A stretch of 64,000 nt of DNA from Syntrophales bacterium (GTDB taxonomy: Bacteria > Desulfobacterota > Syntrophia > Syntrophales > JADFWA01). Positions 10,076-41,308 of this stretch are shown in pieces. The stretch lies in the NCBI GenBank assembly GCA_030655775.1, contig JAUSPI010000154.1, positions 3,839 through 67,838 on the forward strand, read 5' to 3'. The notes under the pieces are model-generated. The model searched no databases, was not told where the DNA came from, and was given only the letters and a program-made list of their open reading frames with translations. Numbering within the stretch: position 1 is the first letter of the stretch; each line of letters starts with the position of its first letter. A program made the translations under genes and the position numbers.

Positions 10076-10158
10076 GAGGCACAAAGGCACATAGTTACAA
10101 AGGCACAAAGTAATATTATTTTTTTCTCTTCCTCTGTGCCTTTGGTACTTTGTGCCTC
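10076..10158. repeat. inverted short-tandem-repeat element A (arms built of GAGGCACAAAG units)
   Basis: Left arm 10076-10110 (GAGGCACAAAGGCACATAGTTACAAAGGCACAAAG). Right arm 10132-10158 (CTCTGTGCCTTTGGTACTTTGTGCCTC). It starts 13 nt after the ppdK stop. Confidence 0.85.
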
Positions 10159-10176
10159 TATCACATAAATTAAACC

Positions 10177-10235
10177 GTAGGGCAGGGCTTTAGCCCTGCA
10201 TGAACAACAGCAAGGCTAATAAAGCCTTACCCTAC
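10177..10235. repeat. GTAGGG...CCCTAC clamped twin-hairpin element
   Basis: Sequence GTAGGG-CAGGGCTTTAGCCCTG-linker-GCAAGGCTAATAAAGCCTTAC-CCTAC. Same architecture as 59258-59313. Confidence 0.7.
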
Positions 10236-10324
10236 TAAAGGGCGAGGCTTTTTTCCATTCCCCGAATGGGACAATAAACAAATCAGCTTCTTCCTAATAG
10301 TTCCACAGTGGGATTACCCCGGGT

Positions 10325-11527
10325 CTAATATTTAAACATTCCGTTTTCGTAAATTACCATCTTTTTGCCGGAAGCAAGGTGTGCGGTAATCGTCTTTCTT
10401 TCTGTATTCACAAGATCCCAGTGAAGGGCTGAATCGTTAAAGCCCAGCTTTTTCTTCATTTCCCTTGTCAGCTCAGCGGGATTTCCATTGTAAGTATCCG
10501 AATATGACGCACCAACTGCAATATGACAGTTCCCGAAGCGACCGCCATAGTTCTCATCATAAAGGGTATTGGCCATAAATTTGTCAATCTTTGAAAACCT
10601 CTTATCAGTTAAAGAAAACTCCCCTACCCTGCAGGCTCCTTTGTCCATTGACATCTGCTTTTGTGTAAACTCTTTTCCTGCATCAGCTTCTATACCGACA
10701 GCATAACCCTTCTTGAACTCCAGCCTCACGCCCTCGATATAATTGCCGCTTCGAAAAGAAGGCTGATTTGCATAATAGATACCTTCAGTTCCTCTCCAGT
10801 CGGGTGAAAGAAACATCTCAAAACTTGGAATATTATGCCCGGAAATCCCAATCCATCTTCTTTGCTTTCCCGGTGTAATCTTCAAGTCAATATTTTCTGA
10901 CTGGATATGATAAAACTTGACGTCCAGGCTATTCATCCATTTCTTTATAGCTCCGGCATTTCTGTAAATAGCTTTCCATTCACGAACAGGGTCATCACTG
11001 TCAAGGTAACAGGCCTTGCTAATCTGCGCGGTGTACCGCTTCATGGAGAGTTTAGCCTTTTTAGCAAGTTCAGGAGTCGGAAACATGCAGAGTGTCCAGC
11101 CGAACACTCCAACCTCTTCACGTTTCTCTAATATCTCCCTTAACGGTTTTCTGGCAACCAGTGCTTTAGCCATCCTTCTTGGATCAATACCGCTAAGATG
11201 GGTAAGGGACTGCGGTGCATGAAGATAGATGTTCCCGTTAAGATTTTCACAAAGTTCCCTTTCTCCGGGAGGTTGGAAAACAAGTTGCCTGCTATTCGCT
11301 TTTGCATAAAAATTGAGTTCCATTTCAGACGTCAGACCCGATCTTAGAACCGGATTCATCCCCATATCAAGAAACCTTGCGTGCAGGATTTCCGCAAGTT
11401 TTATGGCATCAATATCATATCGAATCAGGACAACATCGCCCTTTCTGTATTTTGACGTTCTTGCGGTTTTCAATCCCCATATAAGGACATCAGCATATCT
11501 TTCAATCTGTATATCTGTAAGTGCCAT
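10325..11527 (-). CDS. aminopeptidase, peptidase M29 (AmpS/aminopeptidase T-like) family
   Basis: 400-aa ORF. The family assignment is by overall sequence recognition only. Confidence 0.7.
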   Translation of the reverse strand: MALTDIQIERYADVLIWGLKTARTSKYRKGDVVLIRYDIDAIKLAEILHARFLDMGMNPVLRSGLTSEMELNFYAKANSRQLVFQPPGERELCENLNGNIYLHAPQSLTHLSGIDPRRMAKALVARKPLREILEKREEVGVFGWTLCMFPTPELAKKAKLSMKRYTAQISKACYLDSDDPVREWKAIYRNAGAIKKWMNSLDVKFYHIQSENIDLKITPGKQRRWIGISGHNIPSFEMFLSPDWRGTEGIYYANQPSFRSGNYIEGVRLEFKKGYAVGIEADAGKEFTQKQMSMDKGACRVGEFSLTDKRFSKIDKFMANTLYDENYGGRFGNCHIAVGASYSDTYNGNPAELTREMKKKLGFNDSALHWDLVNTERKTITAHLASGKKMVIYENGMFKY

Positions 11528-11548
11528 TTCAACCCTCCATTTTTACAT

Positions 11549-11666
11549 AAAAATCCCCCCGTCCCCCCCTTTAAAAAAGGGGGGCAAAGAGAGGACGTTA
11601 CCCTTTATAAAAGGGGGAAACCCTTATGTCATCCCACTTTTATAAAGGGGGATTAAGGGGGATTTT
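11549..11666. repeat. inverted short-tandem-repeat element F (arms AAAATCCCCCCGTCCCCCCCTTT / AAAGGGGGATTAAGGGGGATTTT)
   Basis: The arms at 11549-11572 and 11643-11666 are reverse complements. The core contains the further palindromes CCCCTTTAAAAAAGGGGGG and CCCTTTATAAAAGGGGG. Confidence 0.75.
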
Positions 11667-11676
11667 CAGACAGAAA

Positions 11677-12267
11677 TCAAATCACCGATGGTTTGCATAT
11701 AATCTCTTTCACCTTAAGATCAAAGACATTGGAGCTGTTTGCAGGTTGAATAACCAGAGCAGTATCAGCGCCTCTTGCTGTTCCTCCTATTGATATTACA
11801 TCTTCATCCGTCCGTACCAGACCTGCATCGGCGGCCATCAGGGCCAATTCAACAGCCACTTTGGTCCCCTGACCGAACATCCTCAGGACATAAGCGACAA
11901 TTTCATCCACCTGGTAGGTAGAAAGCTTATTCCTTATGCCGCGGCCGATCCCGGCCAGGGCATGCATACAGGTCAGGACGCTTACACCATTCGACTCCAA
12001 TTCCGTACGGGACTCCTCACTCAACTCCTGAAAATTGGGTTTTGCAAACCCCGTAACGTGGGTTACAGCAATAATTTTGATGCCCTTATCCAGAATTTCC
12101 AGTGCATCGAAAGCAGTTTTTCCGGTATTCGTTGCAATAAGAACTTTTCTGATATCGAGTTCCTCTGCCCTGCGCGCAACCGCTTCAAGAACCTCGCTGG
12201 TATTCTGTATGCCTGGCTTTTTAAAGTAACGGCATCCGATATCTTCGTATAATGATAAATCTGACAT
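11677..12267 (-). CDS. stand-alone pyruvate-kinase C-terminal (alpha/beta) domain-like protein
   Basis: 196 aa. Recognition-level resemblance to PK C-terminal domain proteins. RBS GGGAGGTG upstream. Confidence 0.55.
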   Translation of the reverse strand: MSDLSLYEDIGCRYFKKPGIQNTSEVLEAVARRAEELDIRKVLIATNTGKTAFDALEILDKGIKIIAVTHVTGFAKPNFQELSEESRTELESNGVSVLTCMHALAGIGRGIRNKLSTYQVDEIVAYVLRMFGQGTKVAVELALMAADAGLVRTDEDVISIGGTARGADTALVIQPANSSNVFDLKVKEIICKPSVI

Positions 12268-12349
12268 AAAAGATCACCTCCCTTTAATAATTTCTGAACA
12301 ATATCACCCTTGAAAGAATATAAAAAGCCTTTTTGCAACATTTATAAAC

Positions 12350-12377
12350 TTGACATCTTACTTATTCTGGCTATCTT
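12350..12377 (+). promoter_or_regulatory. sigma70-like promoter pointing toward the aminotransferase gene
   Basis: TTGACA (12350-12355), 16-nt spacer, TATCTT (12372-12377). Confidence 0.4.
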
Positions 12378-12472
12378 AATTACTGAATCACCCTGTTAGA
12401 GTCTTTATTATCAACAACTGCGTTTTTTGCGCAGATGTTGGTACCAGTTCAAACAGCAAGATTTAGTTAAGA

Positions 12473-12609
12473 GTGTAAAGTGAACTAAAGTGAGCTAAAG
12501 TGCCTAAAGTTAAAAAATGCGCTTTCAGCGCAGCCTGTTTTGAATTTGACCGCGCCGAAGGCGTGTACATTAACTTTAGTTCACTTTAGGCACTTCAAAC
12601 TTTAGGCAC
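12473..12609. repeat. inverted short-tandem-repeat element B (arms built of TGNNCTAAAG units)
   Basis: Left arm 12473-12510 (GTGTAAAGTGAACTAAAGTGAGCTAAAGTGCCTAAAGT). Right arm 12573-12609 is its imperfect complement. 62-nt core with two small GC hairpins. Confidence 0.85.
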
Positions 12610-12646
12610 TTTTGGGGTTGCGGCTTTGCCGCTTTAGGAGAAATAT

Positions 12647-12691
12647 CCGTCACCCTATGATCTATGGGTGACGGTTTCTTTAATATTTTTT
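12647..12691 (+). terminator. intrinsic-terminator-like hairpin in the 5' region of the aminotransferase gene
   Basis: Stem CCGTCACCC (12647-12655) and GGGTGACGG (12666-12674), followed by TTTCTTTAATATTTTTT. It ends 20 nt before the ATG at 12712. Confidence 0.5.
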
Positions 12692-12711
12692 GAGAAAGGA
12701 AGGATAACCTT

Positions 12712-13824
12712 ATGGACACACCATACAAAGACCTCTCGCTTCCACAGCGAATTTTACTGGGTCCCGGTCCCAGCAATGTACCGGATAGTGTACTCAAAGC
12801 CATGGCAAGCCCTGTCGTGGGACACCTCGACCCGGCATTTCTTGCCGTCATGGAAGAAGTCCAGGAAATGCTCCGGGTCGTTTTCATGACGAACAATCAT
12901 TTTACAATTCCCATTTCGGGAACGGGAAGTGCCGGTATGGAAGCCGCTTTTGTAAATATGATCGAAGAAGGTGATCATGTGCTCGTTTGCGTCAACGGTG
13001 TTTTTGGCGAACGTATGAGTGATATCGTCGGACGGTGCGGAGGTATCCTTAAAAGGGTTGAAGCAACATGGGGGACTCCGATTAATCCCGATGACGTTAC
13101 CGCCGCACTTCAAGACTTTCCAGCAACAATTGTGGCCATAGTCCACGCTGAAACATCTACCGGCGTGTTGCAGCCTCTTGAAGAAATTTCAAAGATTGTC
13201 CACGAAAAAGGTGCTCTTCTGTTAGTGGATGCAGTTACGTCTCTCGGAGGCGCTCCCGTCAAGATAGATGAGTGGAACATTGATATCTGTTATTCGGGAA
13301 CCCAAAAATGCCTCAGTTGCCCACCGGGGCTTGCTCCTATTACCTTCAGTGAGCCGGCCATTGAAAAGCTGAGAAAGCGCTCTCAAAAGGTGCAGTCCTG
13401 GTATCTGGATATGACCATGCTGGAAAAATACTGGGGGCCGGACAGAGTCTACCATCATACGGCGCCGATCAGCATGATTTACGCATTGAGAGAATCATTG
13501 CGGATTATATTGGAAGAAGGCCTAGCGACCAGATGGGAAAGACATACCAGGCACCATCGCGAGCTCGTTGCAGGTCTCGAAAAGCTGGGTTTAAATATGC
13601 TCGTAGAAGAATCATATCGGACACCGATGCTCAATTCTGTGGTTTTTTCATCGGATGTTGATGATGCGGCAGTTCGGAAAAGGCTTCTCGAAGAATATAA
13701 CATTGAAATCGGCAGTGGCCTTGGACCCCTCAAAGGAAAGATCTGGCGAATTGGACTTATGGGACATTCCTGCAGTCAGGAAAATGTGGAGCACATATTG
13801 AATGCCCTGAAGGCCTTACTCTAA
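12712..13824 (+). CDS. class V PLP aminotransferase (alanine-glyoxylate / serine-pyruvate type)
   Basis: 370 aa. LLGPGPSNVP start block and SGTQKCL (PLP-lysine context). Confidence 0.85.
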   Translation: MDTPYKDLSLPQRILLGPGPSNVPDSVLKAMASPVVGHLDPAFLAVMEEVQEMLRVVFMTNNHFTIPISGTGSAGMEAAFVNMIEEGDHVLVCVNGVFGERMSDIVGRCGGILKRVEATWGTPINPDDVTAALQDFPATIVAIVHAETSTGVLQPLEEISKIVHEKGALLLVDAVTSLGGAPVKIDEWNIDICYSGTQKCLSCPPGLAPITFSEPAIEKLRKRSQKVQSWYLDMTMLEKYWGPDRVYHHTAPISMIYALRESLRIILEEGLATRWERHTRHHRELVAGLEKLGLNMLVEESYRTPMLNSVVFSSDVDDAAVRKRLLEEYNIEIGSGLGPLKGKIWRIGLMGHSCSQENVEHILNALKALL

Positions 13825-13901
13825 CTCTGAATAGTGGCAAATCAGTATCAGTGTAAGCCGGGTATTTATTGACCGGAATATATCTTTACTGAGAATAGTT
13901 T

Positions 13902-17102
<3,201 letters not shown>

Positions 17103-17289
17103 ATTCAGCTACCCTTCCTTTTCAATCGTCAATTTACTTATAGGAACAGTATGATTTTTAAGTCTGAATGTTGCTATCAGTTAAACCAATTATTGTCAAT
17201 ATGTCTGTTGTTAAAAAATCTTTTTTATCGAACAAAAGATGGTCCTACGGAATTCTTTTTTCAGAATCGAGTTTGTGATATAGAAATAA

Positions 17290-17420
17290 GGGCACAGAGG
17301 CACAAAGGGATAGAGGCACAGAGGCACAAGGTACCAGAGGCACAAAGAAAGAAAAGATTGTAGGTTGGGTTGAGCTTGCGAAACCCCACAACTCGGAACC
17401 TTGAACTCTGAACTCGGAAC
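17290..17420. repeat. short-tandem-repeat cluster C (5 direct GAGGCACA(A)AG units, GTAGG hairpin, ACTCGGAAC units)
   Basis: 17290-17346 reuses the unit of element A in direct orientation only. 17360-17389 is GTAGGTTGGGTTGAGCTTGCGAAACCCCAC. 17390-17420 is AACTCGGAACCTTGAACTCTGAACTCGGAAC. Confidence 0.75.
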
Positions 17421-17473
17421 TTTCATGTAAACGAAGAAGAAAATGAAAAGAGGAAGGGGGCTTCGAACAAATA

Positions 17474-18253
17474 ATGTTTCTCTTTAAAAAAATTTTCGCA
17501 CCTTTATTTTTCCCGGTATCTTTATGTCTGGAGATTATGATACTGGGCCTGTACCTGCTTTTTTTTACAAAAAAGCAGAAGGCGGGAAAAGTCATTATGC
17601 TGATAGGGGTGCTATTGTTTGCATCACTCAGTTATGGAGTTGTTTCCGACAGATTGTTAAAGCCCCTGGAGTATCAATACCCACCACTTGCTTTAAATTC
17701 AGTATCTGACATTTCGTCTTCAGCAAAGTGGATCGTTGTGCTGGGTGGAGGGCACACATCTGATCCCAGACTTCCAGTTACCAGTCAGATTTCAGACGAG
17801 TCTCTTGTTCGTCTTATAGAGGCTATTCGTCTTTACAAAGAACTACCTGAATGCAAGCTTATCCTCTCAGGCGGAAGGAGTTTTGATCCGGTTCCCGAGG
17901 CTGAAACTATGGCGCGTGTCGCCCAGGCAATCGGTGTAAATAAACAGGATTTGCTTTTAGAAACAGGTTCCAGGGACACAAAGGATCAAGCTCAACACAT
18001 CAAGTCAATTCTTGGAAGCAACAAATTTATCCTGGTAACTTCCGCTTCACACATGCCTCGCTCGATTGCCCTATTCAGAAAGTTGGGAATGGATCCAATT
18101 CCAGCCCCTGCCGGTCATCGTGTTAAACAAAAACAGGGTGACGGCATAAGTCCCCACGATTTTTACCCTGATCCGGGAGCGTTGGTCAAGGCTCAAAGAG
18201 CGATATATGAATATCTGGGAATTGCCTGGGCAAGATTGAGAAACCAGATATAA
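17474..18253 (+). CDS. DUF218 / YdcF-ElyC family membrane-anchored protein
   Basis: 259 aa. N-terminal TM segments, then the VVLGGG...LILSGG...VTSASHMPRS pattern typical of DUF218. Confidence 0.7.
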   Translation: MFLFKKIFAPLFFPVSLCLEIMILGLYLLFFTKKQKAGKVIMLIGVLLFASLSYGVVSDRLLKPLEYQYPPLALNSVSDISSSAKWIVVLGGGHTSDPRLPVTSQISDESLVRLIEAIRLYKELPECKLILSGGRSFDPVPEAETMARVAQAIGVNKQDLLLETGSRDTKDQAQHIKSILGSNKFILVTSASHMPRSIALFRKLGMDPIPAPAGHRVKQKQGDGISPHDFYPDPGALVKAQRAIYEYLGIAWARLRNQI

Positions 18254-18292
18254 GTGATTAGAGTAATCTGGGTAATCTGCTAAATCTGTGGA

Positions 18293-18949
18293 TTAAATCA
18301 CAGAGGGTATCCACCGATAAACCGGCGCCAGGTATCTTGCCACCTGTTTTTTTCGAGGGATCATAAAGATGAAACACTTTTTCTGATCAGGAACGATTGC
18401 GATATGCCTGATAACACCCGGCTCAGGGTTACTATCCATAAATTTCATAAAGTTATCGCGCATCTTTACGCTTTCGTAATACAGATAAAACTTATAGTTT
18501 CCCCACTTCACATCTTCTCTATTTAACAGATGTGCGTTTGTTATTTTCGACCGCCGAAACCCGTCATACTTCGCCTCAATCAGATGACATTCCTCGGAAG
18601 GATCGTGCCTCAGGTACAACGTTATAAATAATCTATCATACCTTTTTATGAGCTTTGATATAGGAAAATAAAGTAATGAATGTCTTGGAAGAAATGTGAC
18701 GGTAACATCAACTTGAGAGATGGGGCTTTTCTTTTTAATGAAGAAATTAGCATGATAGCCGATTGCACCTCCGATATTGGTGAAGGTTTGATCATCCGGC
18801 TTGATAACATCTATGATGTCATCAAACACTGAAAGAGATAACGTTTTATTCTTTTTTCTGCCCCAGAAATAGACGAGCGTAAGGAAAAATGAGAAGGCAA
18901 TGAAAAGAAAGAAAACGGGCTGCGTCGCAATCTGCACATTATCGAACAT
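18293..18949 (-). CDS. hypothetical membrane-anchored protein (218 aa)
   Basis: Long ORF with one N-terminal TM helix, starting 4 nt after the stop of the ArsA-like gene. No family recognised. Confidence 0.5.
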   Translation of the reverse strand: MFDNVQIATQPVFFLFIAFSFFLTLVYFWGRKKNKTLSLSVFDDIIDVIKPDDQTFTNIGGAIGYHANFFIKKKSPISQVDVTVTFLPRHSLLYFPISKLIKRYDRLFITLYLRHDPSEECHLIEAKYDGFRRSKITNAHLLNREDVKWGNYKFYLYYESVKMRDNFMKFMDSNPEPGVIRHIAIVPDQKKCFIFMIPRKKQVARYLAPVYRWIPSVI

Positions 18950-18952
18950 TTT

Positions 18953-19885: not shown

Positions 19886-20167
19886 TTAATCTATACCCAG
19901 TATTCCGCACATCTCCGCCAGCATATCGTTGGCCTCCCCTGCCCTTCTATTTAAAACTTTCAGCTCCTTTTCCATAAACGGCAGAAGCTCGACAGCCAGA
20001 AATGTTGGTGGCGAGGGAAATCCGACAAAGGAACCCAAAAGAAGAAGTGCAAAGATGTTTTCGAGCTCCTCCATTTCAACAATAGTGAGAGCAACGGTTT
20101 TTTCACGATGCGATGTATGCAGGCCGGATAAGATGCGACGGAAAAAACTAACGATTGATCGATTCAT
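19886..20167 (-). CDS. hypothetical small protein (93 aa) translationally coupled to the ArsA-like gene
   Basis: Start moved to ATG 20167 (MNRSIVSFFRR...). The 15 extra codons in the track come from the adjacent repeat. Its stop abuts the ArsA-like ATG. Confidence 0.45.
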   Translation of the reverse strand: MNRSIVSFFRRILSGLHTSHREKTVALTIVEMEELENIFALLLLGSFVGFPSPPTFLAVELLPFMEKELKVLNRRAGEANDMLAEMCGILGID

Positions 20168-20170
20168 CGA

Positions 20171-20261
20171 GATGACCGGGAGCGCGTCCGTAAGGGGCGC
20201 AATATAAAACAAACATATTCCTTACCGGGAAGCTCCCCGCCCTGTGGGCGGGGAGCTTCAC
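20171..20261 (-). repeat. double-hairpin repeat, copy lacking the second hairpin (orientation B)
   Basis: Sequence GATGACCGGGAGCGC|GTCCGTAAGGGGCGCAATATAAAACAAACATATTCCTTACCGGGAAGCTCCCCGCCCTGTGGGCGGGGAGCTTCAC. There is an internal deletion relative to the full copies. Confidence 0.85.
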
Positions 20262-20298
20262 TTCTGGAATTGCGTTTGGTTGAGTTTGATTTGCTGTT

Positions 20299-31049: not shown

Positions 31050-32597
31050 TTACTCAGCTTTAACATCTTTACGGTTATACGCTTTAAGGGATTCAAGTCT
31101 GTTTAAAGCGTTTATATACGCCTTGGCGGATGCCACAAGGACATCGGGATCTGTACCACGTCCTACAACTGAACGTCCATTGTATTTGAGTTGAACAGTA
31201 ACCACTCCCTGGGCATCTGTTCCCCCTGTTATCGCATTTACCGCGTATCTGAGGAGAGGGTGGCTTGTCTTCGTAATTTTCCTTATGGCAGCGATGGTCG
31301 CATCAACAGGGCCCACTCCAAAACCTGCCTCCTGTATCACCTCTCCGTCTATCTCCATCTGAACAGTCGCCGTTGGAATTGTCGCACTACCACTGACAAC
31401 GTTAAGATAAATCAATTTGTATTTCTCAGGTTTTCTGAATATATCATCAGAAATAATAGCTTCAATATCCTCATCAAATATCTCTTTCTTGACGTCTGCA
31501 AGCTCTTTGAATCGTTTAAAAATTTTGCCAACTTCCTCGTCGTCAAAATCATACCCCATCTTTTTAAGGTGTTCTTTCATCGCATGGCGACCCGAGTGTT
31601 TCCCCAGAACAATTTGGGTATCTGATACTCCCACTAATTGCGGGGTCATAATTTCATAAGTAGCCTTTTCCTTGAGCAGGCCATCCTGATGAATACCGGA
31701 TTCATGAGCAAAGGCATTTGCTCCCACAATTGCCTTGTTCGGCTGAACAGGTATACCGGTTATATCTATTAACAGCCTTGACGAGTGATAGATTTGCTCA
31801 GTCTTGATATTTGTATAAAGTCCGAAGAGGTCTTTCCTCGTTTCCAGAGACATAACAATCTCTTCGAGGGAAGCGTTTCCTGCCCGCTCCCCTATACCGT
31901 TTATAGCACACTCTACCTGTCTTGCCCCATGCTTCAGAGCAGACAGCGAATTCGCAACCGCCACACCGAGATCATTATGGCAGTGAACCGATATGATTGC
32001 ATTGCCAATATTTTTTACATTCTGAAAAAGATATGCTATTAATTCGCCGAATTCATCAGGCATGGCATATCCAACAGTATCGGGAATATTAACTGTGGTA
32101 GCTCCTGCAGCAATAACAGTTTCCACCATCTCACAAAGATAGCTTTTATCCGTTCTCGTTGCATCCATGGCCGAAAACTCCACGTTTTTCGTAAAGGCAC
32201 GGGCATGTTCCACGGCGGTACGGGCATCTTTTAGAACCTGCTCACGTGTCTTTTTTAACTGATGCTCGAGATGTATGTCAGATGAAGATATGAATGTGTG
32301 AATTCTGGGATTCGCCGCATCTTTAACTGCTTCCCATGCCCGATCAATATCTGCAAGATGTGTTCTGGCAAGTGCTGCAATCTGAAGGCCTCTGATCTCC
32401 CGGGCAATTTGCTGAACCGACGCAAAGTCCCCTTCCGAGGCAACCGGAAATCCAGCTTCAATAATATCTACACCGAGCCTTTCTAATTGCCTGGCAAATC
32501 TCAGTTTCTCCTCCATATTCATACTGAAACCAGGGGACTGTTCTCCATCTCTGAGAGTCGTATCGAATATGAAAACTTTATCTTTGTCCGATTTCAT
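31050..32597 (-). CDS. leuA: 2-isopropylmalate synthase
   Basis: [14 protein letters not shown] and [13 protein letters not shown] blocks, plus a C-terminal LeuA dimerisation/regulatory domain. Start set to ATG 32597 (GGAGGT 7 nt upstream) rather than 32612. Confidence 0.9.
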
Positions 32598-32612
32598 TAT
32601 TTTTACCTCCAT

Positions 32613-32655
32613 CTAAAAATAAAAAGGCCATGGGCTTTGCCGCCCATGGCCTTTT
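32613..32655 (-). terminator. intrinsic terminator/attenuator immediately upstream of leuA
   Basis: Minus strand GGCCATGGGC, 6-nt loop, GCCCATGGCC, followed by TTTTTATTTTT. Confidence 0.65.
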
Positions 32656-32678
32656 AGTACTGTCTTGTTTTTATTAGT

Positions 32679-32792
32679 TCATCCTCTTATACAAACGGCG
32701 GGCGGCGGGTATAAGACACCTGTAAGGCTCAACAAGCACAAAAGCAGAAGGCCGTTTAAGTTAGATAGGTCTCTCTTCACACCACACATCAT
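32679..32792 (-). CDS. candidate Leu-rich leader peptide (37 aa) of leuA
   Basis: My translation gives MMCGVKRDLSNLNGLLLLCLLSLTGVLYPPPAVCIRG. 10 of 37 residues are Leu, four of them consecutive. Confidence 0.45.
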   Translation of the reverse strand: MMCGVKRDLSNLNGLLLLCLLSLTGVLYPPPAVCIRG

Positions 32793-32825
32793 CTTATAAA
32801 AATCCCCCGACATAAAAGTCTCAGC

Positions 32826-32854
32826 AGATTAAAATAAAAGAATATGGATGTCAA
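32826..32854 (-). promoter_or_regulatory. sigma70-like promoter of the leuA leader
   Basis: Minus strand TTGACA (32854..32849), 17-nt spacer, TAATCT (32831..32826). Directly after the cimA stop. Confidence 0.5.
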
Positions 32855-32863
32855 TTGTTTTTT

Positions 32864-34438
32864 TTACTTTTTTCCCTTACTCAATTTATATTGTATGCTG
32901 TCCACAAGGGCATGCCAGCTCGCCTCAATAATGTTTGAGGAGACCCCGATTGTGTTCCAGATTTCATCTTCATCCCTCGACTCCACCAGAACCCTTACTT
33001 TTGCCGCCGTTCCATCGGTTCCTTCCAGGATCCTCACCTTGAAATCCACCAGGTGCATCTTGTCAATTTCAGGATAAAATTTTCTTAACGCTTTCCTCAG
33101 GGCACTATCAAGGGCATTTACGGGACCATTCCCCTCTGCGGCTGTTATCTCTTCCTTTTCTCCGACCGATATCTTAATCATTGCCTGGGATTTGGATGAG
33201 CTTTCTTTTGTTTTTTCGTCGATGACACGGAAGGACTCCAGGACAAAAGGTTCCTTAAACTCACCCGTCACTTTTTTCATCAGTAGAGCAAGTGATCCTT
33301 CAGCAGCTTCAAACTGGTATCCCTGATCTTCCATGTTCTTTATCTCCTGAACAATTTTATTGCTATTGGAGACATCTTCTCCTAAAGAGATATTCAGCTC
33401 TCTCGATTTGTATTCTACATTGCTCCTTCCGGAGAGGTCTGAAATTAATACCCTCCGGTGGTTTCCCACGAGTTCAGGTTCAATATGTTCATAGGCTACA
33501 GGATTTTTTGAAATGGCGCTTACATGAATACCGCCTTTATGAGCGAATGCGCTTTTACCAACAAAAGGACTTGAATTAAGAGGGGGAATATTCGCTACAT
33601 CACTTACATAACGTGAGAGATTCGTAAGCTGTCTGATCGACGTCTCGGGCAGACACCTCTTATTCATTTTTAACTGGAGGTTACTGATTATAGAAATTAA
33701 GTCGGCATTTCCACACCTTTCTCCATAACCGTTTATCGTTCCCTGGACCATTCTTACTCCTGCCTCAACAGCCGACAGGGAATTGGCCACCGCAAGGTCG
33801 CAATCATTATGTACATGAATGCCTAAGAGGTGAGGAGGGATGGACGGGACAATTTCACTTATTATTTTAACCAATTCTCCATTAAGGGTACCTCCATTGG
33901 TATCACAGAGGACAATTATATCGGCACCGGCAGAGAGAGCCGTTTGAACGGTCTTGAGGGTATATTCAGAGTTATTTTTATATCCATCAAAGAAATGCTC
34001 GGCATCGTAGATTACTTCTTTTCCTTTCGATTTCAGATATTCAATGGTTTCTTGTATCATTAAAAGATTTTCCTTTAACGATACCCCGAGAATCTCAGTT
34101 GCGTGAAGATCCCAGCTTTTTCCAACAATTGTGACAGCCAGTGTTTCTGCATGAAGCAGGGCTTTCAGGTTCGGGCAATCCTCAGGAGAAGAATTGACCT
34201 TCCTGGTACTTCCAAAAGCCGTAAGGCGGGCATTTTTAAATTCCACATCCCGTGCAAGCTGAAAAAAGCGTATATCTTTCGGATTTGACCCCGGCCATCC
34301 ACCTTCGATATAATGAAAGCCCATATCATCCAGTCTACAAGCGATCCGCAATTTATCCTTTGCGGAAAAGTGGATGTTTTCTCCCTGCGCTCCGTCTCTC
34401 AAGGTTGTATCATAAATCAGCACATCCCATTTTTTCAT
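32864..34438 (-). CDS. cimA: (R)-citramalate synthase
   Basis: 524 aa LeuA-family enzyme with IYDTTLRDGAQGENI, the N-terminus typical of CimA-type enzymes. Placed ahead of leuACDB. Confidence 0.8.
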   Translation of the reverse strand: MKKWDVLIYDTTLRDGAQGENIHFSAKDKLRIACRLDDMGFHYIEGGWPGSNPKDIRFFQLARDVEFKNARLTAFGSTRKVNSSPEDCPNLKALLHAETLAVTIVGKSWDLHATEILGVSLKENLLMIQETIEYLKSKGKEVIYDAEHFFDGYKNNSEYTLKTVQTALSAGADIIVLCDTNGGTLNGELVKIISEIVPSIPPHLLGIHVHNDCDLAVANSLSAVEAGVRMVQGTINGYGERCGNADLISIISNLQLKMNKRCLPETSIRQLTNLSRYVSDVANIPPLNSSPFVGKSAFAHKGGIHVSAISKNPVAYEHIEPELVGNHRRVLISDLSGRSNVEYKSRELNISLGEDVSNSNKIVQEIKNMEDQGYQFEAAEGSLALLMKKVTGEFKEPFVLESFRVIDEKTKESSSKSQAMIKISVGEKEEITAAEGNGPVNALDSALRKALRKFYPEIDKMHLVDFKVRILEGTDGTAAKVRVLVESRDEDEIWNTIGVSSNIIEASWHALVDSIQYKLSKGKK

Positions 34439-34456
34439 TAGTATTAACCTCCCTCA

Positions 34457-34499
34457 AACTAAAAAATCCGTTACCAGTGAACCTGATAACGGATTTTTA
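34457..34499 (-). terminator. intrinsic terminator/attenuator immediately upstream of cimA
   Basis: Minus strand 12-bp stem ATCCGTTATCAG/CTGGTAACGGAT (one G-U pair), 5-nt loop, then TTTTTT. The GAGGGAGG RBS follows. Confidence 0.65.
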
Positions 34500-34528
34500 T
34501 GCTAAACAGTTAAAACACTACACCATTA

Positions 34529-34591
34529 TCAGGTCTCCCATGCATTGGGCCTAATTATCCCGCATATAATGGCAATAGTATTTTTAAACAT
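34529..34591 (-). CDS. candidate Ile-rich leader peptide (20 aa) of cimA
   Basis: My translation gives MFKNTIAIICGIIRPNAWET. Five Ile fall within eight residues. Confidence 0.45.
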   Translation of the reverse strand: MFKNTIAIICGIIRPNAWET

Positions 34592-34716
34592 GTTGATCTT
34601 TTTATCCTCTGCTTCTAAATATATTTCACAATATAATTTCATTTTCCGTTTGTCAAACAAAAAATAGGTTTCGTGTTATAATATATGGATAATTCTCTAT
34701 CAAAGAGGTGTGCATT

Positions 34717-34959
34717 ATGAAAGAATTTACTGTCAGCAGGACTAAAGCCTTAAAGGAAAATCTTTATTGTGGCAACTGCGGCACGTGGATATATTGCCCC
34801 GAGATGAACTCCAGGATGGAAAACGAAAAGGGTGAAATAACAGAACAGATTGGGGAAGGCTGTCTACATCAGAATGATAAAGGGGATTTTCTGGAATGCC
34901 CTGATTGTAAGAGCCATTATTATCTGAGTGTAACTACTCAGGTATCCAGTAGTCAGTAG
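34717..34959 (+). CDS. small zinc-ribbon protein (80 aa), uncertain
   Basis: Two CxxC pairs (CGNCG...CPDCK). AAAGAGG RBS. TGtTATAAT extended -10 at 34674-34682. The last ~12 codons lie inside the arm of repeat element D. Confidence 0.4.
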   Translation: MKEFTVSRTKALKENLYCGNCGTWIYCPEMNSRMENEKGEITEQIGEGCLHQNDKGDFLECPDCKSHYYLSVTTQVSSSQ

Positions 34960-35153
34960 TCAGAATAAAAGCAGTATGTAACGCTGACAAATTACTGATT
35001 TCTTCAATTATGAAGCAACATCCTGCACGGCAGAATTTGGGGAACAGACTCTACGTCATTCGATGTTTAAAGCCTTTTGCTGGACGGTTTTTATTTTTTC
35101 TTCTGTCTACTGAATTCTTGCTTCTGACTCCTGAGTAGTTACATCTGAGTGAG
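34924..35153. repeat. inverted short-tandem-repeat element D (arms with GTAACTACTCAGG and CAGTAGT units)
   Basis: Left arm 34924-34965 and right arm 35101-35153. They share an exact 13-bp inverted core plus imperfect flanks. ~135-nt core. Confidence 0.75.
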
Positions 35154-35206
35154 TAATCCAGGGAAATAAAGCACAGGATATAAGGGGGCAACCCTCCATC
35201 CTTCTG

Positions 35207-36649
35207 CTATTCTTCTTCGGCATTTTCTATAGCAAAAGTGTTTCTGTCTGATAATTGCACTGGGCGTGAAGACCTGTCAATACTTTCCAGCGTATCAATA
35301 TCGCTTCCAGTTGAAACCCCCAATTCTTTAAACTTGCGTGCAGCAACGAGAAACCGCCCTTCAAAAGAACCGACTGCCTTATTGTAATTATCAACCGTTC
35401 TATCCAGATTTTTTCCTAAATTTGAGAAATGACCGGCAAGGGTGGCTATACGATCATACAATGTTTTCCCAAGATTGCTTATCTCCTGAACATTTTCCGC
35501 AATCTGTTCCTGCCTCCATCCATAGGCAACAGCCCGCAACAGAGCAATGAGTGTCGTCGGAGTGGCCAAAATCACGCGCCGATCCACACCGAACTCTATC
35601 AAACTCGGGTCTTGTTCAAGTGCCGCACTGAAAAAAGTTTCACCCGGCAAAAAGAGAACTACAAAATCGGGAGTCGGATCAAACTGCTCCCAATACGTTT
35701 TTGTACTGAGCTGCGATAGATGCGTGCGGATATGGCGTGCGTGATCTTTAAGTTTTTTCAGCTTAGCCGTTTCGTCTTGCGTCTCCAATGCTTCAAGGTA
35801 GGCTTGCAATGGAGCTTTGGAGTCTACCACTATATTTTTGCTGTTGGGAAGCTTAATGACCATATCCGGCCTCAGTCGGCCGTCTTCAGTTGTAACCGAT
35901 TCCTGCTGAATAAAATCACAGTATTCAATCATTCCGGCAATTTCAACCACCCGTTTAAGCTGTATTTCACCCCAACGACCACGAACCGTTGGAGTTCGAA
36001 GTGCCTTTACAAGATTAGCCGTTTCACTCTGAAGCTGGATTTGTGTGGTGGCGAGTGATCTTACTTGTTCGGTCAGGGTGGAATAGGCGGTAGTACGGGA
36101 TTTTTCTATTTCGTGAATTTTGCTGTCAACCTTTTCCAGGGATTCTTTCAATGGTTTAACGAGTTCGTCTATTGCCTTCTGGCGCATTTGTAAATCACCT
36201 TTGGCGCCTTCCTGAAACTTTTCAAGTGTTTCTTTCGCCAGTTCTAAAAAGGATTGATTATTACTTCTAAGCGCGTCCAGCGATAGTGCTTTAAAAGCAT
36301 CGGTTAATTTCTGCTGCGCTTCATTAAGAAGGGCAAGCTTTTCTTCAGCAGCCTTACGTTCTTCATGAAGTCTTGTTTCAAATTCTGACAGTTTTGTCTT
36401 GAGTTCCGTATTTTCACCTTGGAGTTTTATCGCAAATTCTTCTCTCGCCCTCATAACTGATTCGAGGTTTTGCAATTGTTCTTCCCTGTTTTGAAGCCGC
36501 TCAGTAATAGTAGACTTCTCGACCTGACCCTCCAGTTTTACCCTTTCAATAGTACCCTGGTTCTTTTGTTTAAGAACAAGAAAGGTTAATGCGCCCCCGG
36601 ATAAGATTCCAACAAATACTAAAATCAAAAACAAAATAATATTTTCCAT
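35207..36649 (-). CDS. rmuC: DNA recombination protein RmuC
   Basis: N-terminal TM helix, long coiled coil, and a C-terminal RmuC nuclease-like region. ATG 36649 is preceded by GAGGA. Confidence 0.8.
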
Positions 36650-36699
36650 AACAACTTCCTCGCTTTTCATCCCTTCTCTGATAAAAAGTACCGGACAAA

Positions 36700-36810
36700 G
36701 TGAAGCTCCCCGCTCACAGGGCGAGGCTTCCCGGTAAGGAACATGTTTGTTTTATATTGCGCCCCTTGCCCCGCCTACAAGGCGGGACTTGCGGGTGCGC
36801 TCCCGGTCAC
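36700..36810 (+). repeat. ~110-bp double-hairpin repeat, full copy (orientation A)
   Basis: Sequence GTGAAGCTCCCCGCTCACAGGGCGAGGCTTCCCGGTAAGGAACATGTTTGTTTTATATTGCGCCCCTTGCCCCGCCTACAAGGCGGGACTTGCGGGTGCGCTCCCGGTCAC. Confidence 0.9.
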
Positions 36811-36816
36811 CTTTCA

Positions 36817-38442
36817 TCAAAAGATAAAATCGGTTGAAAGGAAGTTGGATTTATGTTCCCGTACAATACGTGTAATGATTTCCCGGTTAATATCCACTCC
36901 CTTTGCTGCTACTAATGTCCTGATTGAAAATACCCGCAATGCATCCGACACAGAAAGAGTGCCTTCAGCGGAATCTTTTCTTCCCGTGAACGGAAACGTG
37001 TCAGGGCCTCGTTGACACTGGCTGTTAATATTGACTCTGCATACCTGATTGACCAGGGGATCGATAAGGTGTGCTATCGTTTCGTGATCCCTGCCGAAAA
37101 TGCTCACCTGCTGTCCATAATTTGAGTCAATAATATACTTTATCGGCTCCTCAATATCATCAAAAGGAAGAACAGGAATAACCGGTCCAAATTGCTCTTC
37201 CCAGCAAACTCTCATCTCAGGATTGACAGGATACAAAACCGCCGGATAAAAAAATGATTCATTTACAGTGCCGCCCCCTTCATTAACGACCCTGGCTCCT
37301 AAACGGGTGGCATCTTCAATCAGTTCCGTTAAATATTTCGGCTTATCGGATTCCGGCAGAGGCGTTATATTAACGTTATCTTCCCATGGCATACCGAATT
37401 TTAATTTGCCAATCTCTTCTGTAAATCTATCAAGAAACGAATCTACCAACCCGGAATGCACAAATAATATTTTAAGCGCAGTACAACGCTGTCCATTATA
37501 TGAAAGGCTTCCTGAAATACACTCCTTGACGGCCAATTCCAAATCAGCATCCGGGAGAATGATACCTGCATTTTTTGCCTCCAATCCGAGAACGCAACGC
37601 AGCCGGTGAGGTTTTGGATGCTGTTTTTTTAATATATCTGCCACCTTGCTTGTCCCAATAAAAGCTAAAACATTTATTTTCCCGGAAGACATCAATGGAG
37701 CAATAACTCTGCGGGCATCACCATAAACAGTGTTTACAACCCCCTTTGGAAACGATTCCTTAAATGCCTCCAGCAGCGGCCGATGAAGCAATACTCCTAA
37801 TTTTGGAGGTTTAAAAATTACCGTATTCCCCATTATTAGAGCGGGAATAAACGTGGTGAAGGTTTCATTCAGGGGATAATTAAAAGGCCCCATACACAGG
37901 ACAACGCCCATGGGGGCTCTGCGGATCTGTGCAACAATTCCCTGTTCAATTTGAAACCTGGAGGAAGTGCGATCCAAATCCTTTAATGCATCTACAGTAT
38001 CCCGTATGTAGTCAACCGTTCTGTCAAATTCCTTTTCAGAATCCTTGTAAGATTTCCCAATCTCCCACATCAACAGGTTAACAATCTCGGCTTTCTTTTG
38101 CTTCATCCGGTATGCAAATTCTTCAATGTGCCGGATTCTTTCTCCTGTGGACATTGTAGGCCAGAGCCCTCTTCCGTTATCGTAAGCTTTTACTGCAGAA
38201 TCAAGCGCTTCCTCCGCTATCTCTTCCGTCAAAAGCGGGTATCGGCCTATCAATTTCCGGGATAGTCCTGACGACGTTTTAATGCAAACCGGAGAAAAAA
38301 CTTCCCGCATCGGGCCATCCCAGTAACGCAAGTCTCCATTGATCAGATATTCCGTTTGATCATAAGGTGTTTCAAAATTAAAGTCGGCTGGTATATCTTT
38401 CTCTTCCGGAAACATCTCCTTAATATTTTCTTGAAGTTTCAT
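36817..38442 (-). CDS. non-phosphorylating NADP-dependent glyceraldehyde-3-phosphate dehydrogenase-like aldehyde dehydrogenase
   Basis: 541 aa ALDH superfamily protein (GLEAKN, NGQRCTA catalytic contexts). C-terminal [17 protein letters not shown] block as in GapN-type enzymes. Confidence 0.75.
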
Positions 38443-38482
38443 CTAAAGACACTCCTTTCAGTACCACAACATAAAGATATCG

Positions 38483-38683
38483 CTACCCTCGCTGTCGCCT
38501 TGCTGTAACAGTTTCCCCGCCAATCCCCCAATTATCAGTTTTGACTTCATCAATGACAACTACTGTAGTTTGAGGATTTTTTCCCAAGATATCCGAAAGT
38601 AACCTGGTTGCTCCTTCAATAAGCTGAGCTTTCTGCTTTTGTGTAACTCCTTCATCCGTTATCTTAATATTTACGTACGGCAT
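38483..38683 (-). CDS. 4-oxalocrotonate tautomerase family protein
   Basis: 66 aa. Pro-1 (MPYVNIKIT...) and typical length. Confidence 0.8.
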   Translation of the reverse strand: MPYVNIKITDEGVTQKQKAQLIEGATRLLSDILGKNPQTTVVVIDEVKTDNWGIGGETVTARRQRG

Positions 38684-38710
38684 AGCATCCTCCCCTTTCT
38701 TCTTTGCTTT

Positions 38711-38956
38711 CTATATAAAATCAATAAGTTGATCAACTACAGCAGGCTGGTCCAATAAAACAACCTTAGGCTCTATTCTCTTTAATTCTCCAATATCCCA
38801 CTTATCATCGTTTTTCAGCAATTCCAGGGCTTCGTCTTTGGAATTCGCCAGTATTATAACTTCTGCCTCGATATAGTTATCTTTGTAAACGTGGGGTTCA
38901 TCGAACATAGACCAACTGGAGAATCTCTTACTGTGCCGCCAAATAAAGATTTTCAT
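38711..38956 (-). CDS. hypothetical protein (81 aa)
   Basis: ORF in an operon-like array with its neighbours. No family recognised. Confidence 0.45.
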   Translation of the reverse strand: MKIFIWRHSKRFSSWSMFDEPHVYKDNYIEAEVIILANSKDEALELLKNDDKWDIGELKRIEPKVVLLDQPAVVDQLIDFI

Positions 38957-39021
38957 AAAGCACCTCTTACTATCTTAGATTATCTTGGGGTAGTACCTTT
39001 ATCATTTCTATCAATTATACC

Positions 39022-39300
39022 TCAGACAAATTTGATGACAAGGTGGGGAAACTCTTTTTTGAATTCCCCTTCAAGGCTTGTCCGGATGGTGGACATGATA
39101 GCCATAGCGATGCCCGCGCAGGTAAGACACTTGGGCCGGTGGCTGAGAAAATCGGTAAAAATATACATTTCCTTCTTTTCTTCGTTGTAGCGGACTTTCT
39201 GCACTATTCCCAGCCTGGCAACGGAGAGACCGCTTTCCGGATCTTTCACCCTTTCAAGAACTGAATCTATCTTTTTTGCCATTTCGGGATCTATCATCAT
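39022..39300 (-). CDS. DUF59/MIP18-like (Fe-S assembly SufT-like) small protein
   Basis: 92 aa. The VKDPESGLSVARLGIV block resembles DUF59 proteins. Recognition-level only. Confidence 0.5.
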   Translation of the reverse strand: MMIDPEMAKKIDSVLERVKDPESGLSVARLGIVQKVRYNEEKKEMYIFTDFLSHRPKCLTCAGIAMAIMSTIRTSLEGEFKKEFPHLVIKFV

Positions 39301-39539
39301 CGATCCTCTATACCGATTTTTTACAGCATAGCGTCTCCACCAGAAGGAACATAACCAGCAATGTGTCAGTACCGCTCTGATAAATAAATATGGTGAGCAG
39401 CTTTTTCATTTTTTGCCTCCCCGTTGAGGCGGCGTGCAGCGTGTGTCGCCTTAATCTGCAATATGCAGATAATGGCATATTATATATAATACTTTTCTTT
39501 ATTGCTACCTTTCCGAACCTGCCAGGGGTCCAGGGAACC

Positions 39540-40673
39540 TCACATAGAGCTACATTTCACTTCGAATCGCAGGCCCGGTCGTACTTCAATCAGTACGAGT
39601 TCAGGCGACGCAAGCAACCGCATTGGCGGTCCCCATACACCGGTCCCCTTCGACACATACAGGTGTGCCTCGCCGACCTTGTAGTAGCCCGCCTTAAACC
39701 CACCATTCCCAAGTCCCACGAGAAAAACCATCGGCAGGCTCTGACCGCCGTGCGTGTGTCCCGCTAACGCCAGCGTCATCGGCCGGTTATGCAGAAAATG
39801 TGCAACCTCCGGACGATGCGTTAAGAATAGTACTGCTCCCTTGATCTTAGGCAGGATTTCTTCGACTGCCGTATGTGCCGGAACAAAATGCTTGTCGTCA
39901 ACACCCGCAATTGAAAGCCCCGGAGAAAGTGTTTCAACCTCCTGGCGCAGCAGCCGGAACTGCAGCCGCTCACAAAGTTTTTTGAATTGATTCACCCCGG
40001 AGTAGAACTCGTGGTTGCCGGTCGTAATATAAACCGGCATTCCAGGGAAAAACTCACGAATTAATGCTACCTGTGGTTCGGTGTGACGGCTGTGATCATC
40101 GACCAAATCCCCCGGAATCAAGACCGCATCCGGTCCCAGTTCACGTGCCGCCTTCAGGGTTCGGCGCCACTGTTTCTCGGAGGAACTTGCACCAAGATGA
40201 GAATCGGAGATCAATACAAATCTCTTCGCCTCCGCACCGGGAACCGTAACCTGTAACCTGGTTACCGACGGAGTAGAGGATGCTATCGTGCATCCTATCA
40301 CGCTGAGCACCACTGCCACGCTCCATAATACTGCCGCCATCGTACGCCGCGTTCGCAACGAAGCGTTCCGAATACGCCAACGTGTTGCCAGCCATACAGT
40401 TGCTGCTACTATCTCGAAAACGAACAGTAGCGTCCACAGGATCGCTGCGATGCCGATGAACAACACAGCCGTGTATTCCAGTACTGGAGCTAAATCTTCG
40501 GCTATGTTCTTGGCAATCATTACTCGAGTGGGAACATAAGCGAACCCCACGAGGTAGAGCGCCATGCCGAACACTGCAATAACCTGCCATCGAAGGTCAA
40601 GCAGCACCTTCGTTCGGTAGAAGATATGTGTTAACACTGCCGCCCAGATGGTGAAGACGAAGAAAAAGAACAT
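39540..40673 (-). CDS. membrane-anchored calcineurin-like metallophosphoesterase
   Basis: Start set to ATG 40673 (MFFFFVFTIW...). About 4 TM helices, then the ISDSHLG, GDLVD, GNHE and GHTHGG motifs. Confidence 0.8.
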   Translation of the reverse strand: MFFFFVFTIWAAVLTHIFYRTKVLLDLRWQVIAVFGMALYLVGFAYVPTRVMIAKNIAEDLAPVLEYTAVLFIGIAAILWTLLFVFEIVAATVWLATRWRIRNASLRTRRTMAAVLWSVAVVLSVIGCTIASSTPSVTRLQVTVPGAEAKRFVLISDSHLGASSSEKQWRRTLKAARELGPDAVLIPGDLVDDHSRHTEPQVALIREFFPGMPVYITTGNHEFYSGVNQFKKLCERLQFRLLRQEVETLSPGLSIAGVDDKHFVPAHTAVEEILPKIKGAVLFLTHRPEVAHFLHNRPMTLALAGHTHGGQSLPMVFLVGLGNGGFKAGYYKVGEAHLYVSKGTGVWGPPMRLLASPELVLIEVRPGLRFEVKCSSM

Positions 40674-40896
40674 TTTATTATCCTGTTGTAAATAGCGTAG
40701 GCTCGCTTTCCATCTCTCCCCGCGTCCTACTATCCCGGATGTCCTGCCGCGGCGAACTACCGGTAAACGCTTATTTTGCAAGCACTTATTTGTTGCCCTC
40801 CCGTTTCTCATGCATTCACGGCAACAGTAACAGAAAAGCCACGATGACATCGAACAGGTTTACTTGTCAACCACTTTTCGAAACGACCTGTATCCC

Positions 40897-40969
40897 AACC
40901 GGGAACGCACCCGCAAGCCCCGCCTTGTAGGCGGGGTAAGGGGCGCAACATAAAACAAACATATTCCTT
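40897..40969 (-). repeat. double-hairpin repeat, copy truncated after the central AT-rich block (orientation B)
   Basis: Sequence AACCGGGAACGCACCCGCAAGCCCCGCCTTGTAGGCGGGGTAAGGGGCGCAACATAAAACAAACATATTCCTT. The first hairpin is missing. Confidence 0.85.
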
Positions 40970-41040
40970 TTTATGGATCATCTCCCGATTAGTTGAAGTT
41001 AATTAAGGCAAAATAAGTGCGTTATCTATAATTAATACCA

Positions 41041-41308
41041 GAGGGGTCAAGGGGTCAAGGGGTCAAGGATTCGAGTGAAAGAAAAAAAGACAACCCTGGA
41101 TTACATTAGGATGCTTTATATATTTTATGGTTCTGTTTGCGAACTGGAAACGCAAATATTATCAGCAGGGGATTTGGATTTAATTGAAAAAGGTGTATTG
41201 GGTAAATTAAAAAAAGACATAGCAGAAAGCGAAAGAATGTTAAAAGCGCTGATAAAGTCTTTAGAAAACAAACCCTTGAATCCTTGACCCCTTGAATCCT
41301 TGGCCCCT
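41041..41308. repeat. inverted short-tandem-repeat element E (arms of GGGGTCAAG units) enclosing a four-helix-bundle gene remnant
   Basis: Left arm 41041-41075 (GAGGGGTCAAGGGGTCAAGGGGTCAAGGATTCGAG). Right arm 41272-41308 (CCCTTGAATCCTTGACCCCTTGAATCCTTGGCCCCTC). Confidence 0.85.
41075..41287 (+). pseudogene. C-terminal half of a four-helix-bundle protein (23S rRNA intervening-sequence protein family)
   Basis: DYIRMLYIFYGSVCELETQILSAGDLDLIEKG...ESERMLKALIKSLE matches the helix 3-4 pattern (A.GS..ELETQ...lgyi...ei.kml..li.sl). Full-length members are about 115-125 aa. Confidence 0.6.

Follow-up and report, generated by a model that had tools for sequence, protein, structure and literature searches.

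Short tandemly repeated repetitive (STRR) heptamer hairpins have been described since about 1990 and ribosomal RNA (rRNA) intervening sequences (IVSs) bearing an open reading frame (ORF) since 1993; the latter sit in helix 9, 25 or 45 of the 23S rRNA gene. The IVS of Coxiella comprises 428 nt, contains an S23p ORF for a four-helix-bundle (4HB) protein and has a 28-bp closing stem cleaved by RNase III, and IVSs are regarded as selfish, horizontally moving elements (PMC4990558). STRRs are intergenic 7-bp repeats of filamentous cyanobacteria which can form hairpins, e.g., between hupS and hupL; their function is unknown, and they have been proposed to stabilize transcripts or to couple translation (PMC2670836). 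In Xanthomonas, intergenic GGGAATC repeats of variable length occur as 70–75 inverted pairs per genome, which are convergent and have the G-rich arm in front; they were read as G-quadruplex formers, and no enclosed genes were reported (Rehm et al. 2015; PMC4692102). Also, 23S_rRNA_IVP genes have been noted inside cas loci (PMC3936711). In this study, we analyzed a 64-kb stretch of a Syntrophales bacterium (contig JAUSPI010000154.1, positions 3,839 to 67,838; hereafter the window), in which an initial annotation had pointed out six intergenic elements, A to F, each with arms of short tandem units. Copy counts for these elements are confined to the 64 kb of the window, and loci used for comparison are given by L numbers.

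All six elements were found at the positions proposed, with tandem arrays detected by Tandem Repeats Finder (TRF) in each of them and reverse-complement partners seen by a repeat finder. With a probability of roughly 60%, we assign them to a widespread class of small cassettes located between host genes, either as members or as its empty shells. A complete cassette would consist of a gene of ~120 codons bracketed by two mutually reverse-complementary arrays of a 7–8-nt tandem unit, with the G-rich arm first on either strand. The cargo would be either a 4HB protein of the 23S-IVS/Avd-like family (TIGR02436/PF05635) or a GxxExxY PD-(D/E)XK nuclease.

This design resembles several known systems and coincides with none of them. 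Like the 23S IVSs of Leptospira and Coxiella with their stems of ~28–35 bp, element E holds a PF05635-family ORF in its stem loop, here truncated, and A, B, D, E and F, but not C, have terminal inverted repeats closing a stem of at least ~25 bp. Unlike those IVSs, the elements are situated between genes for proteins and have arms built from 7–10-nt units in tandem, a PD-(D/E)XK nuclease is a further possible cargo, and most copies of the type found in A and C are gene-less. The proposal that the family is of the rRNA IVS kind had to be abandoned: no Rfam family (LSU rRNA included) and no tRNA exceeded the threshold in the window, and none of 20 tested 4HB loci lay in rRNA. With STRRs, the window arrays share the intergenic position, short units (7, 8, 10 nt) and convergent inverted pairs. 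STRRs are cyanobacterial and without cargo, whereas the design described here occurs in a Desulfobacterota-like genome and in many phyla and brackets specific small genes. Convergent inverted pairs with the G-rich arm first are also found for the Xanthomonas GGGAATC repeats. However, STRR/heptamer hairpins have one or few dominant units per genome and the Xanthomonas repeats one, whereas five unrelated units occur within 31 kb of the window. Many gene-less copies beside few gene-carrying ones, dispersed deletion derivatives, presence/absence polymorphism of sites and near-identical copies at unrelated loci (the short form of E, ~90%; the boundary of A in five contexts) are features in common with MITEs (miniature inverted-repeat transposable elements) and REPIN/RAYT systems. 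Unlike in these, the loci yielded no transposase and no clear target-site duplication, the arms consist of tandem units and diverge between lineages, and no mobility function has been demonstrated for the cargo proteins (4HB, GxxExxY). The foldback (FB) transposons of eukaryotes have terminal inverted repeats built of short tandem repeats as well and are far larger; we know of no homology between them and these elements. While gene-less repeat hairpins are already known from STRRs and the Xanthomonas GGGAATC repeats, no paper linking repeat hairpins or arms with 4HB or GxxExxY cargo genes was found among the open-access papers searched.

The association of paired arms with 4HB genes extends far beyond the window. 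By a profile scan with one genome per species, 80 further 4HB loci were obtained, which stem from one archaeon and otherwise from bacteria of many phyla, and the flanks of 82 4HB loci, set from the ends of the profile matches, were compared with those of 117 neighbouring control genes. The complementary-flank score, i.e., the local score of the upstream flank against the reverse complement of the downstream flank, had a median of 37 for the 4HB loci and 16 for the controls (Mann-Whitney p = 3.6e-26). The control 95th percentile was exceeded by 68 of the 82 4HB loci compared to five of the 117 control genes, and these five outliers include a second 4HB gene and a PF13366 PD-(D/E)XK (PDDEXK_3) gene. 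TRF arrays were present on both sides of 56 4HB loci and of seven control genes. The unit is locus-specific, with a period of 7 or 14 in 103 of 130 flanks; Nostoc, Calothrix and Fischerella genes in the sample have heptamer-type arrays on their flanks. The same was seen for divergent 4HB genes (28–50% identical) from plasmids of Calothrix, Nostoc, Geminocystis, Picosynechococcus, Gemmatirosa and Riemerella: tandem arrays are present on both sides, each locus has its own unit, and the arrays are usually complementary.

The initial annotation had mentioned a 4HB gene as cargo. This has to be widened, since GxxExxY/PDDEXK_3 genes were found in the same kind of arms on metagenome contigs (L111, L176, L199), plasmids (L219, L220) and IMG/VR contigs (L221–L227). 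The units around these nuclease genes range from CACAGAG-like to AT-rich, so the unit is not specific to the cargo family. A specific, REPIN/RAYT-like match between the GxxExxY nuclease and units of the CACAGAG type, considered as a candidate, was rejected because of the quite different AT-rich units around nuclease genes on viral contigs.

Element E (+ strand) is a copy of a short, non-autonomous form of the 4HB cassette that has dispersed, because an internal deletion of about codons 3–55, a nucleotide identity of ~90% and a 3′ hairpin (CTCTTCTCCAACTAAATTGGAGAAGA) are common to window E, L232 and L228, which represent three different gene neighbourhoods. A conserved 5′ flank (CCCGATTAGTTGAAGTTAATTAAGGC, 40984–41009), also present in L232, is followed by a left arm of GGGGTCAAG-type 8-nt units (3.4 copies by TRF, 41040–41075), the remnant ORF (41075–41287) and a right arm (CCCTTGAATCCTTGAC, 2.2 copies, 41271–41310) that encodes the last codons of this ORF. 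The 3′ hairpin (TCTTCTCCAACTAAATTGGAGAAGA, then CCCCTTTTTA; 41308–41332) is terminator-like according to the terminator scan, and a hairpin of the E type is also kept in L017. The arms form an inverted pair of 36 nt with 89% complementarity, and folding of 41035–41315 yielded a stem of ~34 bp (z = −6.9). The view that E holds the C-terminal half of a 4HB gene was borne out: the ORF matches positions 47–109 of 109 in TIGR02436 (36.4 bits, cut-off 24) and positions 51–105 of PF05635 (30.6 bits), and the full-length form has 123 aa. A protein search with the fragment gave 1278 relatives, of which the best 120 are 81–94% identical. Named relatives come from Deltaproteobacteria, Syntrophales and Desulfobacteraceae assemblies, consistent with the orthologues of the M29 peptidase in the window. 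Full-length genes of the E type in L002, L003 and L017 have inverted GGGKYCRAG-type arrays on both sides. E is located between a metallophosphatase gene and a rubrerythrin-like gene; look-ups of P0042 or of the rubrerythrin-like neighbour revealed no orthologous E site. A diversity-generating retroelement with an Avd accessory protein was rejected, as the neighbours of E include no reverse transcriptase and none was among the genes called next to the 4HB genes of L002 and L003.

For the arm unit shared by A and C, at least 120 metagenome contigs matched the search pattern GAGGCACARAGGCACA; the following analyses cover the 120 listed loci, with inverted partners sought within 800 nt. Such a partner was present in 64 loci, and the G-rich arm came first in 56 of these. 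The cores of the paired loci were shorter than 60 nt in 26 cases, 60–150 nt long in 32, 150–350 nt in one and at least 350 nt in five, and gene-less hairpins had cores of 30–150 nt. Four of the five long cores contain a complete gene, for a 4HB protein in L134 and for a PDDEXK_3 protein in L111, L176 and L199; in the fifth, L118, no cargo was detected. A complete 4HB gene also adjoins the unit in L139. The 144-nt core of L185 retains only the N-terminus (MKTYRDLLVWQKSMTL) and the C-terminus (REIERMLSG) of a 4HB protein in differing frames, and this locus is an intermediate that arose by internal deletion between the full cassette and the empty hairpin. Thereby, a full decay series from intact 4HB genes (L134, L139) via a remnant (L185) to gene-less cores is supported for this unit. 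The arm unit of A and C is that of a very abundant lineage whose members contain 4HB cargo, nuclease cargo, a deletion remnant or nothing. The left boundary of A in the window (CTAYCGGC..GCCGRTAGCTTGAGGCACAAAGG plus unit) recurs in L137, L120, L163 and L196, i.e., in five contexts including the window, and none of these four loci encodes ppdK upstream of the boundary. In L119, L125, L133, L117 and L204, we observed concentric shells with outer CACAGAG-type arms around an inner pair of a different tandem unit; the inner shells sometimes surround a GC hairpin. These shells could be due to nested insertion into loops or to growth from the centre.

The arm sequences had been described as unrelated. 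Arm similarity, however, tracks the identity of the 4HB proteins (Mantel test; 33 of 2000 permutations reached the observed correlation). Pairs with at least 70% protein identity have units in common (GGGAACA; GGRKTCRAG; GGTTCANAG), and pairs at 55–70% show partial resemblance, e.g., GGGTTCAAGG versus GGTATCAAGG. The arms are accordingly passed on together with the cargo and change fast, and both have spread to new intergenic sites. Judged from these comparisons, the seemingly unrelated units of the window represent separate, diverged lineages in one genome, whose kinship is hidden by quick arm turnover. The idea that arms are made anew from the target at each insertion is not supported, given the E- and A-type arms kept across unrelated sites and the co-divergence of arms and proteins. 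Many units of the 4HB loci are variants of TCAGC, TTAGC, CAGT or GGGAACA: CAG occurs in 25 of 72 consensus units (7.5 expected) and TCAG in 11 (1.7 expected). Several Flavobacterium species (L033, L034, L035, L084) have a 4HB cassette at one shared intergenic site after a gene ending with …EENWN*, and several Bacteroidota (L025, L029, L043, L076, L086) have one after a thiolase-like gene. The units at these shared sites are related with species-specific differences, and the sites are suited to measuring arm turnover.

Compensatory evolution had been offered as one possible origin of arms that differ in sequence and agree in tandem design. In the aligned arms, 87% of the positions are Watson-Crick pairs, and the mismatches comprise 86 G·U, 73 A·C and 132 transversions. 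There was no excess of G·U over A·C (p = 0.34) and no difference in stability between sense and antisense hairpins. With both comparisons even, there is no evidence for compensatory evolution of one transcript, and strand-specific RNA selection on the arms was rejected; descent accounts better for the differences between arms, as these co-diverge with the cargo gene. Since neither transcript is singled out, the upkeep of complementarity is presumably strand-symmetric; it might involve templated copying between the arms or selection on the DNA or RNA hairpin of either strand. The 5′ arm is richer in G than in C in 59 of the 68 4HB loci with complementary flanks. This says nothing on cargo orientation, because an inverted repeat reads alike on both strands. 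Telomerase-like repeat addition at break ends is a candidate process compatible with such a G-first topology.

Pairing of the arms was also evident within the window. Of the 16 non-coding TRF arrays, nine had an inverted partner within 450 nt that was better than in all 100 random-window controls, and these nine are all parts of A, B, D, E or F. Among the nine coding arrays, no paired one was present. Stem formation, postulated for each element, was confirmed by RNA folding against 200 dinucleotide shuffles for A (z = −5.6), F (−4.0), B (−5.2), D (−4.6) and E, with none of the 200 shuffles as good, but not for C (z = −0.9). The repeat period is 8 nt in A, C and E, ~8–10 nt in F, 10 nt in B and 7 nt in D.

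Element A (10052–10158) consists of a boundary hairpin (CTACCGGCTAAAGCCGATAGC, 10052–10073), an arm of GAGGCACAAAG-type units (10076–10111; TRF period 8/16), a core of ~17 nt without cargo gene and a right arm (10129–10158), with an inverted pair of 29 nt and 83% complementarity. Element F (11550–11666) lies between a PK_C-domain gene and the M29 peptidase gene. It is only weakly tandem with two copies per arm and has a C-rich left arm (AAAATCCCCCCGTCCCCCCC, 11550–11569), two inner hairpins and a right arm (GGGGGATTAAGGGGGATTTT, 11647–11666). Element B (12473–12612) comprises 3.6 copies of a TAAAGTGAAC-type unit (12473–12510), a core with two small GC hairpins (12511–12572) and 4.6 copies of a ACTTTAGGC-type unit (12573–12612). 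Both arrays are paired above every random control, and the repeat finder reported two inverted pairs. In element D (34924–35153), a left arm of GTAACTACTCAGG plus CAGTAGT (2.4 copies, 34924–34966), a core of ~130 nt and a right arm (35093–35153) were identified, both arrays with inverted partners. An 83-aa ORF (34708–34959) upstream of D has its stop codon inside the left arm. Element C (17291–17421), correctly described before as one-sided with the A-type unit in one orientation, contains 6.8 copies of GAGGCACA (17291–17344) and 4.6 copies of AACTCGG (17390–17421). These arrays are mutually non-complementary and have no inverted partner within 450 nt; C possibly consists of two unmatched half-elements. 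Intrinsic terminators were rejected as an identity of the elements, as no arm pair was reported by the terminator scan, in which only the small 3′ hairpin of E, one hairpin in the core of B and the one at the boundary of A qualified. Known RNA families were likewise rejected, there being no Rfam match in the window.

Comparison with the orthologous loci L004, L006 and L007 revealed presence/absence polymorphism at the sites of A and F. In L007 (86% M29 protein identity), both sites are empty with 18 nt at the F site and 38 nt at the A site. In L004 (92%), the F site has a shorter F variant and the A site unrelated sequence, and in L006 (90%), unrelated sequence is present at the F site and a different MITE-like element at the A site. 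These data support A and F as lineage-specific insertions. The last codons of ppdK (…KKTTTG*, window 10025–10063) extend into the boundary hairpin of A. Since the orthologues in L004 and L006 end differently (…IEGK*), insertion of A seems to have rewritten the ppdK C-terminus. Directly 3′ of A, a nested hairpin (GTAGGGCAGGGCTTTAGCCCTGC ... GGCTAATAAAGCCTTACCCTAC, 10168–10236) is followed by GGGCGAGGCTTTTTTCC, with structured inserts stacked one after another in the ppdK-M29 spacer. A 33-nt inner-arm segment of F (11600–11632) is missing in L004, and its core is an inverted copy of the adjacent 18 nt; either an inverted duplication by template switching in the window or an arm deletion in L004 may account for this difference.

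With respect to gene context, the 4HB gene was co-directional with both neighbours in 47 of 59 scored loci and opposite to both in two, and the median gaps to the neighbours were 72 and 65 nt. Because the neighbours are co-directional and the gaps small, the 4HB cassette is typically intercistronic and presumably depends on host transcription. Bracketed 4HB cassettes also occur between cas genes, namely in L010 (cas6 / 4HB / cas4) and L016 (cas10 / 4HB / cmr3).

Several observations weigh against the cassette reading. The 82 4HB loci are the top matches of one scan and a non-random sample of the family, and 14 of them were no better than controls in flank score. L010 has direct repeats and L013 non-complementary arrays around intact 4HB genes, mismatched flanks that recall element C. 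No clear target-site duplication was seen at the A or F sites, and neither a transposase nor an integrase was identified in the loci. E is antisense to both neighbours, which is atypical of full cassettes, and the equal mismatches and stabilities give no pointer to an RNA-level function. Furthermore, arms may also arise or spread without cargo. As no 4HB or nuclease remnant was present in A, B, C, D or F, decay is only inferred for these five elements. The earlier notion of decaying IVS-like carriers therefore stands for E and, with the L185 remnant, for the A/C lineage, while it is plausible and unproven for B, D and F, which may be gene-less members of other lineages.

Three other explanations were considered. 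The elements are located directly 3′ of stop codons or in leaders and fold into strong stems, as would be expected of host regulatory or stabilizing RNA structures (mRNA 3′ stabilizers, processing sites or translational couplers) that evolved in place, the 4HB likeness being incidental. Roles as transcript stabilizers or translational couplers have been proposed for STRR hairpins (PMC2670836), and two Xanthomonas species keep their repeats in corresponding intergenic regions (PMC4692102). Yet A and F are missing at orthologous sites in relatives with 86–92% identical flanking protein, shared units and boundary motifs turn up at unrelated places, the mismatches bear no strand-specific G·U signature and E contains a gene remnant, which together make an origin in place quite unlikely. 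A different account starts from the G bias of the arms: the arrays could function by forming G-quadruplex or i-motif DNA, a role put forward for the heptamers GGGAATC and GGGGAYT, with pairing being secondary. The G-rich 5′ arms of 59 of 68 loci, the runs of four to five Gs in the E and F units and the published biophysics of related heptamers (PMC4692102) agree with this. However, the units of A, B and D have no G-runs, many units of the 82 loci are AT-rich or without GGG, and the unit list already suggests that most units are unable to form a quadruplex; with complementarity of both arms as the consistent feature, we consider this account very improbable.

Arms might also be by-products of replication slippage and of copying by fold-back or template switching wherever a small hairpin occurs, with cargo genes preferring the loops and the gene-less elements never having been cassettes. 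The concentric shells of differing units, the strand-symmetric mismatches, the presence of two unrelated cargo families in the same kind of arms and the 33-nt F segment, an inverted copy of the adjacent arm that is missing in L004, are in line with such a process, although a deletion in L004 would explain the F difference just as well. Co-divergence of the arms with the cargo protein, the joint travelling of E-type arms, flank and 3′ hairpin with the gene, and the existence of deletion intermediates (window E, L185) render it unlikely as the general origin of the elements.

By analogy to rRNA IVSs, the arms of a cassette would pair as a helix of ~30 bp, with the cassette looped out of the host transcript, and this helix would be a plausible substrate of RNase III. 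Judging from the co-directional bias and the tight spacing, full cassettes would rely on read-through transcription from the host, and the PD-(D/E)XK cargo is a candidate mobilizing enzyme. As a wider and tentative proposal, to which we give somewhat less than even odds, STRRs, GGGAATC hairpins, IVSs with 4HB ORFs and the scattered 4HB and GxxExxY genes may belong to one unrecognized class of mobile cassettes. Such a class would occur pan-bacterially and on viral-classed contigs, have self-complementary tandem arms copied at the DNA level, insert co-directionally between genes, need host transcription, leave gene-less hairpins behind and perhaps be mobilized by the PD-(D/E)XK protein. If this link is true, the origin and function of heptamer hairpins and of ORF-bearing rRNA IVSs become one testable question, for which a defined cassette, two candidate effector proteins, a transcriptional polarity of 47 versus 2, a natural deletion series and thousands of copies for comparison are at hand. 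Many "four helix bundle" and "GxxExxY" annotations would then denote cargo of a selfish element, and the association of 23S_rRNA_IVP with cas genes (PMC3936711) could be reread as cassette insertions between cas genes, as in L010 and L016. This would also explain common strong intergenic hairpins which can confuse predictions of terminators, sRNAs and repeats.

Besides A to F, the window contains further inverted-repeat elements. A separate MITE-like family of ~145–165 nt is represented at 45428–45570 and 60164–60327, with the termini TGATG..TCGTAAAAAGTC ... GACTTTTTACGA..CATCA. Both copies are in opposite orientation (local score 141), and the copy at 45425–45570 folds with z = −6.0. The element filling the A site in L006 (5216–5440) is a distant relative of this family with the terminal motif in common. 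At 59257–59314, two adjacent small hairpins (GGTGGTATTTTATATGCCACC and GGTCGGGTATAAAACCCGACC) were observed, and a similar hairpin (GGTGGTATTTTATACGCCAC) is present at the F site of L006 (3928–4000), which suggests another small dispersed element. Finally, a non-coding cluster of nested inverted repeats without tandem units is located at 50838–51010.

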